From assembly GCA_963662655.2 (NCBI GenBank), contig CAXXTU010000002.1, forward strand, positions 2,112,001 to 2,176,000: a stretch of 64,000 nt of DNA, given 5' to 3'. The DNA comes from Candidatus Cloacimonadales bacterium. GTDB lineage: Bacteria; Cloacimonadota; Cloacimonadia; Cloacimonadales; JAIOQZ01. The stretch's first letter is position 1. The number at the start of each line of letters is the position of its first letter. Position numbers and translations under genes: made by a program. The notes under the pieces are model-generated. The model saw nothing but the letters and a program-made list of their open reading frames with translations. It did no database searches and was not told where the DNA came from. Positions 15,003-48,602 of this stretch are shown here, in pieces.

Positions 15003-15114
15003 GCGGCGGGGCGGCGTTGGAAGCGAACGCTTCCAGACCCCGTTTCCACGAGTTTCCGGCCGGAAAACTCGTGGAAACGGGGTCGTGTGCCTTGCACACA
15101 CGCCGCCCCGCCGC
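15003..15114 (+). repeat. Four-way-junction (cloverleaf) element, copy 1
   Basis: 15-bp closing stem GCGGCGGGGCGGCGT/ACGCCGCCCCGCCGC encloses three contiguous hairpins of 8, 20 and 6 bp; related copy at 47049-47230. Confidence 0.85.
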
Positions 15115-20867: not shown

Positions 20868-20974
20868 CTTTCCATGATATGCAGATACCCAATGTCTCTA
20901 TTTGATCTTCTTTCTTGACATTTCTTATGAATAGCAAGCACTTTTGCTTTGTATATTAATTGATGGAGGTAAAT

Positions 20975-22021
20975 ATGGCAACCAGCGAGGCGAAATGCCC
21001 TGTTTGTGGGCAAGAAGCAGAAATCCTGAACCCCGGTAATAATAATTATAGAAATGCAACAAAATATCACTGCGAGTTGTGTGGGTATTTCATGATTACT
21101 GATGATAATGGATTGCTTACGGAGATTGAGAACAACATAGGAAAAAATCATGAACTGATTTTTGCACTCAGAAAACACAGTTCAAAAGATAATATTGTCC
21201 AAATTAGTTCGAGTGAAGATTTTGATAGGCTAATTAGTGAAACTCAATTCCCTCAAACTTGGAAGGAAAAGGAGAAACTATTAGCGTTTTACGTATATGA
21301 TCGCATGGGAAAGAAAAATGGGGATGTTTTTATAGATAAAGCAACTTGTGCAGTGATGGGGGTTTCTGATCAACTTGAGTTCCGAAAGTATAGACAAAAC
21401 ATAATTAACAGCCCTTTATTTAACAAGCAGAAAACCCTGTTAGCAAACGCGACTATTGGACTTACCCTTTCAACTTATGGAATTAATTATATTGAATCTA
21501 TACTGTATCCTGAAGAACCTCAAGAGGAAAAAACAATGTCTATCACGCAAAAAAAACAATGGAAAAAAGCCTGCTTCCTTGTACATGGACGGGATGATGC
21601 TTTTAAAAATAAAGTAGCACGATATATAGAGAAAAACTATAATCTAGATGTTATTATTCTCCATGAACGACCTAATGCCGGACGCACTATTTTGGAGAAG
21701 TTTGAAGCACATTCCTCGGATGATGTCATCGACTTTGCGTTATGTCTCTACACGCCCGATGATATTGGATGCCTGGCTGGAGATGCTTCCGATCCTGCAA
21801 GCATGAGTAAAAGAGCGAGACAGAACGTAATCTTTGAAGCAGGTTATTTCTTCGGAAAGCTTGGACGGAAAAGAACAATAATATTGAAAGCGCCAACTGT
21901 AGAAAACCCCTCCGACATTCATGGCTTGGGCTACATCGGCACTGAAGGACAGTGGACCACTGATCTTGATAAAGAAATCTCCGCCATCTACGGCGACGAT
22001 ATCAAAGACATCAGGAAGTAG
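20975..22021 (+). CDS. Zn-ribbon + TIR-like nucleotide-binding domain protein (CAP12/Pycsar-type TIR), putative defence effector
   Basis: CPVC..CELC N-terminus; C-terminal FLVHGRD, LHERPNAGRTILEKFE, YTPDD, RARQNVIFEAGYFFGKLGR, PSDIHG; visibly AT-rich; GGAGG RBS and its own TTGACA at 20915. Confidence 0.85.
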   Translation: MATSEAKCPVCGQEAEILNPGNNNYRNATKYHCELCGYFMITDDNGLLTEIENNIGKNHELIFALRKHSSKDNIVQISSSEDFDRLISETQFPQTWKEKEKLLAFYVYDRMGKKNGDVFIDKATCAVMGVSDQLEFRKYRQNIINSPLFNKQKTLLANATIGLTLSTYGINYIESILYPEEPQEEKTMSITQKKQWKKACFLVHGRDDAFKNKVARYIEKNYNLDVIILHERPNAGRTILEKFEAHSSDDVIDFALCLYTPDDIGCLAGDASDPASMSKRARQNVIFEAGYFFGKLGRKRTIILKAPTVENPSDIHGLGYIGTEGQWTTDLDKEISAIYGDDIKDIRK

Positions 22022-30081: not shown

Positions 30082-30177
30082 GCGTGAGCAGATTCGTTCG
30101 ATCTGCTTGCGCAGGCGTGGTGTTACACGTCTTTTTATTAGAGTTCGATAGTTTTCAAGACGTGTTATATCCACGCC
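30082..30177 (+). repeat. Double-hairpin intergenic element; its 20-nt core recurs at 56336-56355
   Basis: GCGTGAGCAGAT/ATCTGCTTGCGC; GGCGTGG..ACACGTCTT/AAGACGTGT..CCACGCC. Confidence 0.45.
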
Positions 30178-30228
30178 GGAGCGCAGATCGTGCGAAGATG
30201 CCATGCCGGTAGACCAATGATAAAAAAA

Positions 30229-34859: not shown

Positions 34860-36278
34860 ATGATGGATAACGATCTAAAAAATCAACTTACGACAGATGA
34901 CCACGGAAGGAAAATCGAGGAAATCTTAAGCAATGCCTCATTAGAAATAACCAGAGGGCACCTCGATAAGGCCAGAGAGATTCTGAACGAGGCCGATTCT
35001 TTTGCAGAAACCGATGCCGAACGCGCTCGCTGCAAGAGCGCTCGAGCTCATTTCCTGATGTCTCTGGATCAGAACCGTGAAGCATTACCCATCTTACTGG
35101 AGCTGATCGAGAATCTCGAGAATGGACTTTCGGGAATCAGTGTCGCGCAGTTGTACAATCAGATCGGAATTTGCTATCGCGACATGGGAGATTTCGATAA
35201 ATGCTTGAGCTACTATCGCAAAGCCTACGAAGCATTCTGCGAAAATGAAGACCTCCACGGGATGGCAGGAACCATCATCAACATCAGCAATGTCTACAGA
35301 AGCCACGGAAAGTACGATGTAGCGCTCGAGCACTACCGTCAAGCCGAGGAAATTATCGGAGACAGAGATGGTTTTGACGAACACAGAGCGCTTTTGTTGA
35401 AAGGCATGGGGGCGGTTTATAGAAAACGCAAAGATATTGATAAAGCAATGATCTGCTTGCAGGAAGCTATCGAGATATGCTATAAGCGAGAAGACACGCG
35501 AGGTGTTTGCAATGCCCTGAACTCCATGGCGCTTCTGCGCAAGGATCAAAATCGTTACGACGACGCCCTCGAACTGTACAACTCCAGTCTGGAACTTGCA
35601 AGAGCCAAGGGTTACGACGCACTGATCGCTACGTTGCTTTCAAACATCGGGCAGCTTTACATGCTCAAGGATCAATACGAGGAAGCGAAAGAACCGCTTG
35701 CTCAGGGATTGGAGATAGCCCAACGGATCCATGCGCGGCAAATCGTGATGCAGAACTATTTCATGCACGCCCGTCTGGCTGCAGGACTTGGGGATATTCA
35801 AAAGATTGTCGATTATTTCTTGCTGTACGACGAGGAAAAAGGCGCGCTTCTCAACGACAGAGCCGTCGAGCGCATGAGCAATCTCGAGATGAAGTTCGAT
35901 CTTGAGCGAAAAGAGCACGAAGCCGAGGTTTATCGCCTACGCAACGAGGAGCTTGTTGAGAAGAACCGCCAGCTCAAGGAAGCGCAGGATGAAATACTTC
36001 AGCTCGAACGCCGGAACTCGATTTATGCGATGGCGGTTACGGCCAACCATGAGCTAAACCAACCGCTGATGGTTATTCAAGGCAACCTGGACATGCTCGA
36101 AACCTATATACAAGATGGTGGCGATAAAGCGAAGCAGCGCCTCGAAAAGATCCGCTCAGCGCTCTGCCGCATCAACGACCTTCTCAAGAAATTCCGCCAG
36201 CTTGAAGACGCCCACCTGGGGGAATACAGTTCAGATACCCCTATGGTAGTGTTCGATTCCGACTTCTGTGAATCGTAA
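34860..36278 (+). CDS. TPR-repeat protein with HisKA-like H-box but no HATPase domain
   Basis: Multiple TPRs, a coiled coil, then ANHELNQPL; the protein ends about 65 aa later without N/G boxes. Confidence 0.8.
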   Translation: MMDNDLKNQLTTDDHGRKIEEILSNASLEITRGHLDKAREILNEADSFAETDAERARCKSARAHFLMSLDQNREALPILLELIENLENGLSGISVAQLYNQIGICYRDMGDFDKCLSYYRKAYEAFCENEDLHGMAGTIINISNVYRSHGKYDVALEHYRQAEEIIGDRDGFDEHRALLLKGMGAVYRKRKDIDKAMICLQEAIEICYKREDTRGVCNALNSMALLRKDQNRYDDALELYNSSLELARAKGYDALIATLLSNIGQLYMLKDQYEEAKEPLAQGLEIAQRIHARQIVMQNYFMHARLAAGLGDIQKIVDYFLLYDEEKGALLNDRAVERMSNLEMKFDLERKEHEAEVYRLRNEELVEKNRQLKEAQDEILQLERRNSIYAMAVTANHELNQPLMVIQGNLDMLETYIQDGGDKAKQRLEKIRSALCRINDLLKKFRQLEDAHLGEYSSDTPMVVFDSDFCES

Positions 36279-43356: not shown

Positions 43357-44754
43357 TCATTTATCTCCGATACCAGTCATCCCGTATTTCTTGAGACGAC
43401 GATCCAGGGAATACCAGGTAATATTCAGAAGACGGGCCGCATGCGTTTTGTTGTTTCCCGAGATATCCAGCGCTCGAAGAATCGCCTTCTTTTCGAGAAC
43501 TTCGAGATCGAGAATATTATCCACTGGGCTTGCGGTATCAGGATTATCGATAGCTTTATCGGGCTGATTCGATAAGGATAGGTGCTGCGGTGTGATCTGC
43601 TTCCCTTCGCACAAGATAATCGCACGCTCCAGAATGTTACGGAGCTCACGGACATTACCCGGATAGTAGTAATGCAGTAGCAGGTTCTTCGCTTCGAGCG
43701 AAATGGAAAGACATGATCTTCTCAGCTTGCCCGAGAAATATTCGAGATAGTACTCGATGAGCGCTTCGATATCCTCTCTCCGCTCCCGAAGCGGCTCCAG
43801 ATGAACCTCGAAGCGATTCAGGCGGTAGAAGAGATCGAGCCGGAAGGAATCGTTCTCCACCAGCCTCGAGAGGTCCCGGTTGGTCATTGCGATGAAGCGA
43901 ACATCGACGGGAATCCCTTTGCGAGCCCCGACCGGTATAACGGTACCCGTTTCCAGCACGCGCAGCAGTTTGACCTGCAAACTTAGGGGAATATCGGCGA
44001 TTTCATCCAGCACGAGCGTTCCCTTGTCGGCGGTCTGTATCCAGCCTGTTTTATCAGAGTCGGCTCCCGTGAATGCCCCCTTCACATGTCCGAACAACTC
44101 GCTCTCGAACAGATGCTCGGGAATCGCGGAACAATTGATGGGATAGAAACGCTGTTCGTGGCGGTCGCTCAAGAGATGAATACTGCGGGCGACAAGCTCC
44201 TTTCCGGTACCGCTTTCCCCCGTAACGAGAACCGATGTCGCGGGAGAGGAGGCCACTTTTCCGATGAGCTGTTTCACATGCTTGATGTGCCCGCCCTCTC
44301 CAACGATGGGATGACCGTAGATTCGCTTCAACTGCCGGTGGAGATTGTCGTTGTCCTGCTGAATCCTGCCACAACGTTTTTGAAGGGCAATGTACCGGCC
44401 TGTCCTTTGGATTGCAGCCTCCAGATCGATCAACCGGAACGGCTTGTGGAAGAAGTCGAACGCGCCGGCCCGGAGCGCCGAGAGGATGGTTTCTTCGTTG
44501 CCGAACGCGGTTACCATAATCACCTGAACGTCCGGCCAGCGTTGGGATATCTCTTGCAGAAGTTCCAGACCGCAATCGGCACCCAGACGGATATCCAGTA
44601 TCGCGATATCGACAGGATTTTCCTCCAGAAGCTCAATCGCCGTCTTTCTTGATTCGGCGGCATACACCAGGCATTCGCTCTGCTCCAGATAGTAAGTCAA
44701 CTCCTGACGAATTCCATCTTCGTCATCGACCACCAGAATGCGCAAATCCTCCAT
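43357..44754 (-). CDS. NtrC-family sigma-54-dependent response regulator
   Basis: REC; GESGTGKE; ESELFGH.KGAFTGA; FYRL; PGNVREL; Fis-type HTH. Confidence 0.95.
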   Translation of the reverse strand: MEDLRILVVDDEDGIRQELTYYLEQSECLVYAAESRKTAIELLEENPVDIAILDIRLGADCGLELLQEISQRWPDVQVIMVTAFGNEETILSALRAGAFDFFHKPFRLIDLEAAIQRTGRYIALQKRCGRIQQDNDNLHRQLKRIYGHPIVGEGGHIKHVKQLIGKVASSPATSVLVTGESGTGKELVARSIHLLSDRHEQRFYPINCSAIPEHLFESELFGHVKGAFTGADSDKTGWIQTADKGTLVLDEIADIPLSLQVKLLRVLETGTVIPVGARKGIPVDVRFIAMTNRDLSRLVENDSFRLDLFYRLNRFEVHLEPLRERREDIEALIEYYLEYFSGKLRRSCLSISLEAKNLLLHYYYPGNVRELRNILERAIILCEGKQITPQHLSLSNQPDKAIDNPDTASPVDNILDLEVLEKKAILRALDISGNNKTHAARLLNITWYSLDRRLKKYGMTGIGDK

Positions 44755-44767
44755 CGTACTAGTCCTG

Positions 44768-46906
44768 TTATGCTTGTGTTTGAGGCAAAGCGATCTTCAT
44801 GATCGTTCCTTCGCCGGGCGTGCTGTTTACCGTTATTTCGCCCTCAAATTCCTTGATGATGCCGTAACAAACCGGCAGTCCCAAGCCTGTTCCTTTTCCG
44901 TCCTTCTTCTTCGTGAAGAAGGGATCGAAAATCATGTCGATGTACTCCGGCTCAATCCCGCTACCGTTGTCCTCCACCTTCAGCACGATCGACTTCGCTT
45001 CCATCGCCGTGGAGATGGTTATCCTCTTCTTGTAATCGAGAACACCGGTATCACGCTCTTTCTCTTCCGTTGCATCGCGCGCGTTGGCGATCAGGTTGAG
45101 CAGCACCTGTTCCAGCTTCAAGGGATGCCCAATAACGGGCGGAAGCGGTTCGAGAAGGTCCAGCACGACGTCTAATCCATGTTTTCGGTATTGCTCGTTG
45201 AATAATAGCAGTGTGTTTTTTACCACGTGGTTCAGGTCGACTTTTTCGTAGGTGGTCAACTGTTGGTCTCTGCTAAACGTCTTGATATGGTCGATGATGA
45301 GCTTGATGCGCTCGGTTTCTTTAAGGAACTGACGCGTCTTGAGAACGGTAAATTCGTTGTTCAGCTTGCCCAATCGATCCGTGAAAAGCAGGTTATCGAG
45401 TCCCATCGTGATTCGGGTCAGCGGCTGGTTCACTTCGTGAGCGATACCGGCAGCAAGCTGTCCCAGCGATTCGAGCTTGGATTTCTGGATAATGATGCGC
45501 TGCTGCTCCTGACGCCTTTCCAATTCCTGCTGAACCCGCATCTCCAGCTCCTCGGTCTTGATTCTGTAAATTTCCGCATCCTTTCTCGCGAGATCGGTCT
45601 CCTGCCGCGCCAGCTTCGCGTCCTGCTCCTTCTGCTCGATTTCGTGATGGATGCGCATCACGGCGATCGCTCTTGTCTTCTCAGTATCGAATTGCTTTTT
45701 ACTTAGCGTGCTCCACTCCTTCATGGTCTCAAAAGCATTCCGGTATTCTCCGCATGCCTCCCAGCATTCGGAGAAATCGAGCAAGATTTCCATCTGCCTT
45801 AACGTATTATCCTGCTCCTTCGCAAGAGCAAGCGCATCTTCAAAATACCTCTGTGCCTCCGTCAGGTTACCAGAACACATCAATGTTTCCCCAAGATATT
45901 GCAGAATGGCTGGACGTTCGTTCACTAGATTATACTCGTAACTCAAATGCAGAGATTTATTGAGAAGCTCAAGAGCTTTCCCGTAGTCCGCATAAAATTC
46001 CTTGTGAACCAGCGCCATGTTCTGATAGAGCGTCGGCATTCCGAAGCGCTCATCGATCGCCAGTTTCTTTTCGAGCGATTTCTCGAAGTAACGCATCGCT
46101 CTCTTGGGTCGTTTATTGTTCTTGTAGATCAGACCAATATTCAGAAATGAAATCGCCATTCTTTTTTCGTCGTTACATTTCCGCAAGAGTTTCCAAGCTT
46201 TTCTATGATACTGCAAGCTTTGATACGGTTCGCCCAGTGAAAGCATAACCAGCCCGACATTCACACAAGCACTGATTATCATCAGCGGATTCTCTAATTC
46301 CCGGCATAGTTGATATGCCTCAAGACCACGTTCCAGAGCATGATCCAGTTCGCCAAGATTGTAATAAAATCCGGAGAGATTGCTCAGGGTAGTGGCAATT
46401 TGATATTTCAGTCTTTTTGTCTGCTTGAATTCACTCGTTATATTCAGATATCTTATTGCGTACTCCATTGCCTTGATGAAATTACCCTGATATGATGATG
46501 TGACGGCTATGAGGTTTATTGTAGCGGCCCGTAAAGATTCGTTGTCAGTCTCGTTCAGCACTTCAAGGGCTTGGGCGGCAGTTTTTTCCGCAGCGATTAT
46601 TTCACCCTTTGTGCCCTGGATCGATCCTTTGACGTACAAGCACAGCGCAATTCCGCGTTTATATTCTAATTTTTGGGAAAGCTCCATTCCATCCTCGACA
46701 AATCGAAACGCTCGTTCAAGCTCGCGAAGATGCATGCAACAGGTGGCGCTCAGTGTGTAGAAACTGATCAACGTGGTTTCTTCCTGATACTTGTCAGCTT
46801 CTTGAATAATTCCATCAAGAATTCCCAGAGCTGCGCTATATTCACCGTCGTCCCTCTTCTGGTTGGCTTTCTCCAAAATTGTTTTCAAGTGCTCACTTCG
46901 TTCCAT
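44768..46906 (-). CDS. TPR-sensor histidine kinase
   Basis: GAGGAAATCA-ATG at 46906; TPR array; AHEVNQPL; NLIANARDA; DNGSGI; FDPFFTKK; GTGLGL. The ORF-track extension to 47308 reads through non-coding DNA and the IS end. Confidence 0.9.
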   Translation of the reverse strand: MERSEHLKTILEKANQKRDDGEYSAALGILDGIIQEADKYQEETTLISFYTLSATCCMHLRELERAFRFVEDGMELSQKLEYKRGIALCLYVKGSIQGTKGEIIAAEKTAAQALEVLNETDNESLRAATINLIAVTSSYQGNFIKAMEYAIRYLNITSEFKQTKRLKYQIATTLSNLSGFYYNLGELDHALERGLEAYQLCRELENPLMIISACVNVGLVMLSLGEPYQSLQYHRKAWKLLRKCNDEKRMAISFLNIGLIYKNNKRPKRAMRYFEKSLEKKLAIDERFGMPTLYQNMALVHKEFYADYGKALELLNKSLHLSYEYNLVNERPAILQYLGETLMCSGNLTEAQRYFEDALALAKEQDNTLRQMEILLDFSECWEACGEYRNAFETMKEWSTLSKKQFDTEKTRAIAVMRIHHEIEQKEQDAKLARQETDLARKDAEIYRIKTEELEMRVQQELERRQEQQRIIIQKSKLESLGQLAAGIAHEVNQPLTRITMGLDNLLFTDRLGKLNNEFTVLKTRQFLKETERIKLIIDHIKTFSRDQQLTTYEKVDLNHVVKNTLLLFNEQYRKHGLDVVLDLLEPLPPVIGHPLKLEQVLLNLIANARDATEEKERDTGVLDYKKRITISTAMEAKSIVLKVEDNGSGIEPEYIDMIFDPFFTKKKDGKGTGLGLPVCYGIIKEFEGEITVNSTPGEGTIMKIALPQTQA

Positions 46907-47048
46907 TGATTTCCTCAATATGGGTGATATCTCAATCAGGAGATTCTTTCCGCGACTTGTCCAGAAAAATTTAACCGCCATAATCTCCATATCTTCATGT
47001 TCTCCCCGGCTGTACTGAATGTCCGACTCGAGAATGCGCACCAGCTCA

Positions 47049-47230
47049 GCGCGGCGGGGCGGCGGATGTGCTTCGCACACGGTATATTTCCCCATGTAAG
47101 CGTATTGTTTACATGGGGAAATATACCAAGAAGCCCTACGGAATATCCAGCACATGGTTGTTCCGATTTGATCCGACCTGTGCAAGCATGATGCTGGATT
47201 CGTAGGGCTTCTTCCGCCGCCCCGCCGCGC
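47049..47230 (-). repeat. Four-way-junction (cloverleaf) element, copy 2
   Basis: 17-bp closing stem GCGCGGCGGGGCGGCGG/CCGCCGCCCCGCCGCGC encloses three contiguous arms (13 bp plus extension, 21 bp, 6 bp). Confidence 0.85.
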
Positions 47231-47255
47231 GGTCGGTAACTCGCATTTATTTTTT

Positions 47256-48602
47256 GGCACTGTTGCAAACTTAGTGGGTAAGTCGAAAAAAAGATTGAGA
47301 GGAATCACCCGATCTCGTACAATCTCCTAATCACCACAACAAGGAGATAGAGATGAATGATCCTCTCAGAAAACAAGTCTGTAAAACGTTGTTGGCTTTG
47401 CAAGGTTATTCTGCCGACCAGATAATCGAAGGTACGTATCAAACTTATCCATGCATTGAAGTCCATGTTCGAAAGGAAGATGAGCCACGTTGTCCTACAT
47501 GCGGTATTGTGGGAACAGTTTATGATCATCGAGTCCGCAAAATTCTTCATGCATCCATATCCTGTCGTCCCGTAGTACTTGTGCTGACGCTTCGCCGGAT
47601 CAACTGCGCTCAGTGTGGAGTGAAAACTGAACAACAGGATATTGCCGAGGGTCTCAATCGACACTCTAAAGACTTCGGCAATAAGGTTCTCCAGTTCACG
47701 CTTCGTTCAGACAATGCTTCTGTAGCACGGATATTCGGTGTGGATCGGAGTACGATTTATCGAATCGACAAAATTGAGTTATCCAAGTTGGAAAAGGGTT
47801 ATAGAGGACGAGTTCCGAATGTCGATCAGATTGCAATTGACGAGATTGGTTATAAGCGAAGGCATAAGTATGCAACGGTTATCACAAACCATGAGGACGG
47901 GCGTGTGATCGACCTGACAATGGGCAAATCGAAAGAAAGTGCGAAGGAGTTGTTTCGAAAATACGAACGACGACTCCGCTGGATTGATACCGTAACAATG
48001 GATTTCAGTGGTTCATATATCGGCGCTGTTTCCGAGTGTTGGAGTGCCGATATGATCGTATTTGATCGTTTCCATTTCAGCCGCCTGGTCAACAGAAAAG
48101 TGGAAGAAGTACGACGAGAACTTCAGAGAGATTTTGAATCTGACAAGTTGCGTCAGAGCAAGAAACACGACCGGTGGTTGGTTTTGACCAGAAAACACAA
48201 TCACAAAGAAAACCATCAAGCCCGACTCAAGAAACTGGAGACGCTAAATCATCCCCTTTACGAAGCCTATTTGCTCAAAGAAGATTTACTATCGATTTTC
48301 GAAGACGATATTACGCAAGAAGAAGCGAAGCCGATGATTGAAGAGTGGTGCAGAGTTATTCAGAAAACCGTCTTCGAGCCACTGAAGGCACTTGCAAGAA
48401 CGATTATGAAGAGATTGCATATTGTGTTGAACTGGTTCAAGCATAGAATCACGAATGCCAAGGCAGAAGCGGTTAACAACGTCATTCGAACCATTATAAA
48501 GAGAGCGTATGGATACAAGGACTTCTCATACTTCAGATTGAAGGTTCTGCAATGTTGCGGATATCTGAATACCCATTCACCCACTTAATATGCAACAGTG
48601 CC
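47256..48602 (+). mobile_element. ISL3-family insertion sequence, 1347 bp
   Basis: Left end GGCACTGTTGCAAACTTAGTGGGT versus reverse complement of right end GGCACTGTTGCATATTAAGTGGGT; single transposase; AT-rich flanks; no clear target duplication. Confidence 0.92.
47353..48588 (+). CDS. ISL3 transposase
   Basis: Zn finger CPTC..CAQC; IAIDE; VTMDF; VFDRFH; TNAKAEAVNN..IKRAYGY. Confidence 0.95.
   Translation: MNDPLRKQVCKTLLALQGYSADQIIEGTYQTYPCIEVHVRKEDEPRCPTCGIVGTVYDHRVRKILHASISCRPVVLVLTLRRINCAQCGVKTEQQDIAEGLNRHSKDFGNKVLQFTLRSDNASVARIFGVDRSTIYRIDKIELSKLEKGYRGRVPNVDQIAIDEIGYKRRHKYATVITNHEDGRVIDLTMGKSKESAKELFRKYERRLRWIDTVTMDFSGSYIGAVSECWSADMIVFDRFHFSRLVNRKVEEVRRELQRDFESDKLRQSKKHDRWLVLTRKHNHKENHQARLKKLETLNHPLYEAYLLKEDLLSIFEDDITQEEAKPMIEEWCRVIQKTVFEPLKALARTIMKRLHIVLNWFKHRITNAKAEAVNNVIRTIIKRAYGYKDFSYFRLKVLQCCGYLNTHSPT

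Follow-up and report, generated by a model that had tools for sequence, protein, structure and literature searches.

Four-armed palindromic DNA repeats, probably mobile, in a Candidatus Cloacimonadales genome

Introduction

How REP-like bacterial repeats that encode no enzyme spread is still an open question. Among the closest described systems, TnpA-REP cleaves folded single strands at C|T in vitro (PMC8266576), and the spacers of REPINs are conserved in length and pairing, not in sequence (PMC3116915). TIRYT repeats are tied to Y1 enzymes without the GTAG tag (PMC3733652). The motif GCGNAGC is described as a DNA mini-hairpin, of which the related RNA hairpin is much less stable (PMC13037366).

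Here, we characterize a repeat family that bears on this question. Its copies number more than 70, are diverged, and have sharp ends, a junction that is polar (C^TG), and a DNA-specific mini-hairpin, which makes the family an unusually clean natural data set. The family is apparently undescribed; our literature search, which fell short of most subscription papers and supplements, found no description of it or of four-way-junction repeats.

Results and discussion

The element at the kinase locus

Two copies of the element are present in the window (i.e., the whole 64,000-nt stretch of DNA that was analyzed), one upstream of a kinase-NtrC operon and the other (copy 1) near glnA:

47049..47230, minus strand: four-armed element, long class, 182 nt, arm order stem-A-B-C-stem
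47214..47230, minus strand: 5' half, GC-rich closing stem, 17/17 pairs with 47049-47065
47128..47213, minus strand: arm A, long class, about 86 nt, with a GAAGCC/GGCTTC-type base stem, an internal loop, a second stem, and a variable loop
47081..47127, minus strand: arm B, 47 nt, 19-bp perfect palindrome; length kept family-wide, sequence nearly free
47066..47080, minus strand: arm C, GCGNAGC-type DNA mini-hairpin with a GAA loop (compare PMC13037366)
47049..47065, minus strand: 3' half, closing stem, the final C abutting the flank TG
47025..47048, minus strand: 3' flank (TGAGCTGG...), fitting the loose family flank consensus; putative target DNA
47231..47247, minus strand: 5' flank, last bases CC; putative target DNA
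15003..15114, plus strand: copy 1, a 112-nt short-class member of the family that follows the glnA terminator; CTT loop in arm C, junction CC^TGAG

An earlier note on this DNA had described a four-way junction here, and most of its pairing was correct: all 17 closing-stem pairs are Watson-Crick, the base of arm A (47128-47140/47201-47213) is paired at 13/13 positions, and arm C folds on the minus strand with five pairs and a G-T closure around the GAA loop. Arm B pairs perfectly over 19/19 positions (47081-47099/47109-47127), and the 21-pair version given earlier contains one mismatch (20/21). The junction had been said to leave no base unpaired, which holds for the minus strand if the G-T (G-U) pair is counted but not for the plus strand, where the DNA fold leaves two bases open; across the family, it holds for only 22 of 73 copies. 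Both strands fold strongly, the plus strand as DNA with -81.7 kcal/mol (z, -13.4) and the minus strand as RNA with -125.1 (z, -13.0), and 0 of 200 shuffled sequences were as low in either case. A short-read contig (X1) covers 44500-47279, including the element, with zero differences.

The arms of the two window copies had been regarded as swapped. Both copies in fact have the order stem-A-B-C-stem, copy 1 on the plus strand and copy 2 on the minus strand; the kinase-locus copy is thus inverted relative to copy 1 and has a long arm A (about 86 nt, versus 18 nt in copy 1). As the note had stated, deleting either copy gives CC^TGAG with zero duplication.

The neighborhood of the kinase-locus copy comprises the following features:

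44768..46906, minus strand: TPR histidine kinase gene, 712 aa; likely start ATG 46906, a congener match beginning at the same Met
43357..44754, minus strand: NtrC-type sigma-54 response regulator
47256..48602, plus strand: ISL3 insertion sequence with 24-nt inverted repeats, transposase at 47353-48588, 25 nt from the element
46699..47255, minus strand: duplicated segment holding the element and a 5' portion of the kinase gene, second copy at G000:C2:2239155-2239709 beside an ISL3 fragment

The likely kinase start is preceded by a GAGG motif, and an 846-aa open reading frame (ORF) that crosses the element is a mechanical extension of the kinase gene. The second copy of the duplicated segment, which is 98.5% identical, is a rearrangement product and not an independent insertion, and it was left out of the counts based on 73 copies. 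The TTAATTAA flank of the window ISL3 also occurs at an ISL3 fragment 80 kb away, which suggests IS-mediated rearrangement; the flanks of the window ISL3 are nonmatching. Of 12 full ISL3 copies, 2 are in A/T tracts no more than about 25 nt away from an element (window 47256-48602 and G000:C2:2629396). Elsewhere in the window, 34860-36278 encodes a TPR protein with a terminal HisKA domain and without an ATPase domain.

A dispersed intergenic family

The genome (G000) contains at least 76 full copies of the element, 105 to 203 nt long and intergenic. Profile searches, in which copies were found through the closing stem and arm C and in which arms A and B played no part, gave 76 parsed 3' ends, 74 of them with a 5' partner; two further full copies missed by the parsing lie near C2:1370200 and 1802500 and have the arm C loops GAG and AAG, respectively. 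The layout common to the family is a GC-rich closing stem, arm A, arm B, and a 15-nt arm C. The closing stems form terminal inverted repeats of 11 to 19 pairs in most copies, with an outer tip that varies in length and sequence. Arm A occurs in two sizes (16 to 32 nt in 33 copies and 64 to 95 nt in 40 copies), and arm B mostly measures 39 to 52 nt. DNA folding predicted a four-way junction with at most four unpaired bases in 73/73 copies, versus 69/365 sequences in which arms A and B had been shuffled.

In most long arms A, the internal loop is of the short-by-long kind and T-rich on its 3' side, and 5 of the 40 share the loop word GAATT(T/C)CATCC, on a single strand only. A collapsed copy at G000:C2:100925-100960 consists of the closing stem alone, with flanks that fit the consensus. 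Two lone 3' halves were observed (G000:C2:1165375 and 3617709), and the genome-wide profile search found no 5' end on its own, the mark that a gene-carrying copy would leave.

The spacing of copies along the genome is near random (coefficient of variation, 0.94). According to simple ORF calls, the surrounding genes are co-directional at 13 copies, anti-directional at 26, convergent at 19, and divergent at 15, and at 28 of 73 copies the gene downstream runs in the same direction as the element (P = 0.06 for a test against one half). The copies show no bias with respect to replication, the leading strand carrying 37 of 70 (P = 0.72), and no copy lies inside a called ORF of at least 200 aa, barring the mechanical extension at the kinase locus. 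The 101 neighboring proteins have no common function and are a mixture of housekeeping and surface gene products. One copy follows xerC, an adjacency that we took as chance.

Probable selection on folded DNA

The arms retain pairing at near-random identity. Between copies, the first 20 bases of arm B have a mean identity of about 31%, and 52 of 57 copies keep at least 13 of 15 pairs there. Departures from the consensus were both-sided in 69 cases versus one-sided in 15 for the closing stem, and both-sided in 40 versus one-sided in 1 for arm C; an alignment of 22 sequences, in which related copies are nonindependent, contained no stem or arm C pair that varied on one side alone. Mismatches in the stem and arm B were G-T in 12 cases versus A-C in 14, giving no RNA wobble signature. 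Of the 76 parsed ends, 57 have a GNA loop in arm C, each of the four bases being found at its middle position, and 5 have the inverted loop TNC. Since G-T is not favored and the GNA loop of arm C is that of a DNA mini-hairpin, selection appears to act on folded DNA.

The earlier note had placed the element in the operon's leader. Between the likely kinase ATG and the nearer end of the element, which is co-oriented with the gene, there are 143 nt, and ISL3 lies 25 nt past the other end; this position, the strong RNA fold, and a sigma-70-like match inside the element would suit a cis-acting leader RNA or a stable noncoding RNA regulating the kinase-NtrC operon. We nevertheless consider such a role highly improbable. 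Beyond the mixed arrangements, orientations, and neighbors of the copies, which argue against a leader function, G-U pairs are not preferred, and neither the about 200 nt nor the about 350 nt upstream of the two closest kinase homologs contains the element. Rfam gave no match above the gathering score (one chance hit scored 24 bits versus 88) and no hits at 14 loci with family copies. The position upstream of the operon is incidental, the element being a passenger; any transcriptional effect would be incidental, as is the finding as far as the kinase operon is concerned.

Junctions and flanks

At the ends defined by pairing, 42 copies are flanked by C|T and 9 by A|G, its reversed form, i.e., 51 of 73 copies versus about 17% (2/12) expected (P of about 1e-23); CC|TG alone accounts for 35/73, and the remaining 22/73 copies have neither C|T nor A|G at the pairing-defined end. 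The junction is polar: CTG is found at one end in 47/73 copies and at both ends in 0/73. In six copies, CTG is on the strand opposite the GNA loop, and the element interior occurs in both orientations relative to the flanks. There is no sign of target duplication, the longest word shared by the two flanks averaging 4.9 versus 5.2 in permuted data, with no recurring offset.

Around the junction, a loose consensus reaches about 20 nt in both directions and constrains the 3' flank more strongly; it is palindromic across copies but not within single copies. Flank identity averages 35 to 38% and shows no relation to interior similarity (rho, 0.03 and -0.03), and near-identical interiors are found in unrelated flanks. 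Across the copies analyzed, the flanks are nonrandom, and the earlier proposal of a duplication-free mobile unit is supported, with a site-preferring junction: the family of at least 76 copies has a preferred C^T junction, no excess of direct repeats, and like interiors in unlike flanks, and those congener loci that were checked lack the copies.

Four candidate explanations for the targets or arms were rejected. Pairing of the flanks within copies, as for a hairpin-forming target, did not go beyond permuted controls; matching of the target by an internal guide scored 5.68 versus 5.63 in permuted data; an empty target family in the genome gave about 20 profile hits versus 13 in the control; and for arms captured from the genome, 13-mer sharing was 0.18 versus an intergenic mean of 0.25 (median, 0.19).

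The extended consensus raises an alternative in which the element is wider than its stems, the 20 to 25 nt of flank on either side belonging to it, CC^TG being an internal joint, and recombination at the GC-rich stems swapping and flipping the cores between older frames. There is a weak covariation of left with right flank types (rho, 0.18, from nonindependent pairs), some copies have 14/14 left-flank bases in common, the consensus of one flank is the inverted repeat of the other, and arms assort among copies, one pair being 90% alike in arm A and 51% alike in arm B. Such a wider unit is nonetheless unlikely, given the low flank identity and its independence of the interior, the lack of within-copy flank pairing above permuted controls, and a copy in a congener (G002) that sits, like its closest relative in G000, in a different but consensus-fitting flank.

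The core CCTGAG is shared with a local REP, to which the earlier note had tied the element. This tie is not supported: none of the 61 copies with a regular boundary lies inside a TGTCA(C/T)CCTGAG REP, despite 58 such genomic sites. The motif GTAGGGC in arm A, cited as a link to GTAG REPs, was found in 1 of 73 copies, namely, that at the kinase locus. The tetranucleotide before arm A was GTTG in 18 copies, GTAG in 8, GTGG in 7, and others in 35 (68 scored); a GTAG-like foot is thus not conserved, and no RAYT is detectable in the genome.

Other repeats were observed in these genomes. The CGTC-type REP family (TGTCATCCTGAGCGGAGTCGAAGGA) has 58 core matches, including those at window positions 144, 20808, 22056, 23804, 32649, and 52208; a CAP12/Pycsar-type TIR domain protein (window 20960-22021) is encoded between two REP copies. 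At G000:C2:885122-885292, a small broken GIY-YIG ORF is ringed by three CGTC-type REPs and is a candidate mobilizer of that family; the GIY-YIG search returned this ORF, amid CGTC-type REPs, and a 613-aa frame (UvrC sized). A second repeat family, with the ends GATCGAACGAATCTGC and GATCGGGCGAAGATGCC and a variable palindromic core, occurs genome-wide (window 30103-30186 and 56337) and has a strong replication bias (45 lagging versus 14 leading copies); one copy is also found in G002. This replication-oriented repeat appears to be distinct from the four-armed element.

REP cores are targets of IS110 elements in G002, where we found 17 IS110 matches (loci L137-L146 and L150-L156), 10 of them in the TGTCATCCTGAG REP of the CGTC type at TGTCATC-CT-GAG and the other 7 in a REP of the GTAG type. 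Segments of the 5' noncoding region of these IS110s match the target, as expected for a bridge RNA, and remnants of their 3' region are present in G000. That the four-armed element is a derivative moved by an IS110-family bridge recombinase, with a target like the CCTGAG REP core, has been largely refuted. CT is kept at both junctions by the 10 REP-core IS110 copies but at a single end by the element, 0/61 element copies are in any of the 58 perfect REP targets, the element has no similarity to IS110 ends, and G000 has no IS110 gene or IS110 domains.

Distribution across genomes and probable mobility

A covariance model (built from short copies under strict filters) detected the family in this genome and at one site each in G001 and G002 among 141 searched genomes of the order; it found no copy in the remaining 138. 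The G002 copy is 91% identical to one G000 copy, and genes of these species are about 70 to 84% identical; it sits between genes without a match in G000. In G000, the region syntenic with the G001 copy has no element (about 200 versus 425 nt) and is too diverged for the join to be placed. Copy 1 was not found around glnA in 3/3 congeners, in which only the glnA side is syntenic. A search for empty alleles, as the earlier note had proposed, yielded no exact empty allele, the congeners being too diverged; no joint skipping a whole copy was seen in the run contigs of one study.

Viral contigs gave 0 matches, and none was found in plasmids and phages. The GTDB search returned three hits, i.e., the two congener copies and one that was apparently due to chance, and the metagenome search returned two, one corresponding to the apparent GTDB chance hit and one in coding DNA.

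The single G001 copy (L093:10030-10240) is enclosed by a perfect 13-bp inverted repeat whose halves lie about 40 nt away from it to the left and right, and such outer repeats are not general in G000. At positions corresponding to the G000 element sites C2:1848598 and 2592717, congeners (L118, L119, and L136) carry a RAYT gene and unrelated GTAG REPs. The RAYT gene follows xerC in G001 and G003, and G003 has one at another of these sites as well. Only one side of the sites is syntenic, and the coincidence may reflect tolerant gaps that the genomes share.

Search for a mobilizing enzyme

No Y1/RAYT gene was detected in G000 (98.95% complete), either as a PF01797 match or as a tblastn remnant. 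Y1 genes are present in six of seven relatives in the same taxonomic family; none of the 20 Y1 loci in these six has the ends of this element, and the three of these loci that were inspected by eye have their own GTAG REPs. Loss of RAYT genes by deletion is known in E. coli (PMC3733652), and the absence from G000 is therefore compatible with past action. A search for Y2_Tnp (IS91) found no match in G000, with a control search that matched nowhere either. Pfam searches of 101 of the 107 neighboring ORFs (at most 520 aa) revealed no transposase or HUH domain; the 6 ORFs left out had already been identified (xerC, glnA, NtrC, and three ISL3 genes). Among the multicopy ISs obtained by genome self-comparison, none has matching ends, and the ISL3 beside the kinase-locus copy was rejected as its mobilizer. 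The single reverse transcriptase gene of G000 is not near any copy; at C2:981409-981954 (L065), it is broken by a stop and followed by a small HTH-like gene.

G000 encodes two Xer-sized tyrosine recombinases (XerC confirmed) and four others. The copies might be solitary attC-like sites whose folded strands are recombined by a tyrosine recombinase, a reading with which the conservation of structure over sequence and the copy after xerC would agree. It is very unlikely, as no integron integrase was found (the best TIGR02249 score was 80 bits versus a cutoff of 265 among non-Xer recombinases, with xerD outside the scan), the ends lack RYYYAAC/GTTRRRY cores in their order, and the copies form no arrays and have no fixed orientation to the upstream gene.

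With no mobilizer found in the genome, host replication enzymes may also be considered: the folded strand, with its mini-hairpin and a 5'-CTG-3' at its 3' foot, would act like a phage G4-type priming site, and copies would be placed by template switching or a junction-cutting nuclease. CTG, and not CT alone, marks one end in 47/73 copies; E. coli DnaG primes on d(CTG) (PMC2978363), and mini-hairpins are described at G4-type priming sites (PMC13037366). The flipped TNC loops and the stem-only collapsed copy fit template switching. This route is a weaker rival that ranks below the HUH reading set out below, and we regard it as improbable. Primase specificity is class specific (PMC2978363), and that of this phylum may differ; the six copies with CTG opposite the GNA-loop strand and the absence of strand bias do not fit, and priming offers no path to precise insertion.

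Proposed mechanism

The family is very probably a mobile, noncoding DNA repeat, and the chances of an HUH-type enzyme as the mechanism are about even. Taken as a whole, our main reading, to which we give a probability of roughly 50%, is that the family is nonautonomous palindromic mobile DNA, likely recognized as a folded strand and joined at C^TG by an enzyme acting in trans, most likely of the REP-type HUH (Y1) class.

According to this HUH reading, the substrate would be single-stranded folded DNA, as suggested by the GNA mini-hairpin of arm C on one strand and by G-T not being favored. A trans-acting HUH enzyme, since lost from the genome, would cut at C^T and join the 3'-OH ends, as TnpA-REP does in vitro. 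Rounds of copying would select shape and arm length and not letters, like REPIN spacers, and recombination or template switching within the palindromes would flip loops and interiors and mix arms among copies. The C|T cleavage by TnpA-REP and the likeness to REPIN spacers make an HUH enzyme in trans the mechanism that we favor. Counting against it are the lack of a conserved foot and of a strand bias, as well as a flank constraint of about 20 nt, which goes beyond a C|T rule.

The sharp ends, the polar junction, the DNA-specific mini-hairpin, and arms that are kept in length and pairing at near-random identity indicate what a mobilizing enzyme must recognize. A broader and doubtful extension is that the family is one lineage's version of a widespread, unrecognized type of mobile DNA, a single-stranded Holliday-junction mimic with ruler-like arm lengths whose shape and CTG foot would be read by an undescribed enzyme, or by host primase and junction-processing enzymes alone.

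Comparison with known systems

REPINs and BIMEs with their RAYTs are likewise dispersed, intergenic, noncoding, species-restricted, and patchily distributed palindromes (PMC3116915, PMC8266576, and PMC6006769). REPINs share with the element inverted ends and a spacer kept in length and pairing (PMC3116915), as well as the lack of duplication; the C|T cleavage site of TnpA-REP (PMC8266576) matches the element's junction dinucleotide in sequence. Unlike a REPIN, the element has three internal arms that form a predicted four-way junction, halves that are not a REP pair, no conserved GTAG/GTGG or CGTC foot, no cognate RAYT/REPtron, and a flank preference that is extended and degenerate. Whereas IS200/IS605 elements are biased to the lagging-strand template (PMC6006769), the element is unbiased (37/70 leading), and whereas their target is a tetranucleotide on the 5' side only, both flanks of the element are constrained.

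The bcr1 repeats (group A bcr repeats of the Bacillus cereus group) resemble the element in size (about 155 nt), in their nonconserved positions, in having no known enzyme, and in a cruciform-like fold kept by compensatory changes (PMC3184786). They differ in 5-bp direct repeats, two stem-loops, and a description at the RNA level (PMC3184786), compared with no duplication, three arms, and a DNA-type signature in the element. TIRtrons and TIR families with TIRYT also combine GC-rich terminal inverted repeats with stem-loops (PMC3733652), but the search of 8 genomes of the taxonomic family found no Y1 gene with element ends beside it. Terminal inverted repeats, a noncoding core, a size of 100 to 200 nt, and strong folding are shared with MITEs such as ERIC, Correia, and RUP (PMC3184786); in contrast to DDE-type MITEs, the element has no target duplication, a variable outer tip, and no IS with matching ends.

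The IS110s of G002, which served as a positive control, also insert near CT without a long duplication, but they have CT at both junctions and hit perfect REPs, and the element does neither. Integron attC sites carry R boxes (RYYYAAC...GTTRRRY), form cassette arrays, and are recombined by IntI; the element is without R boxes, arrays, or IntI. The element thus lacks defining features of REP/RAYT units, DDE MITEs, IS110 derivatives, attC sites, and bcr1 repeats, although in its working it resembles a nonautonomous repeat of the REPIN or bcr1 type.
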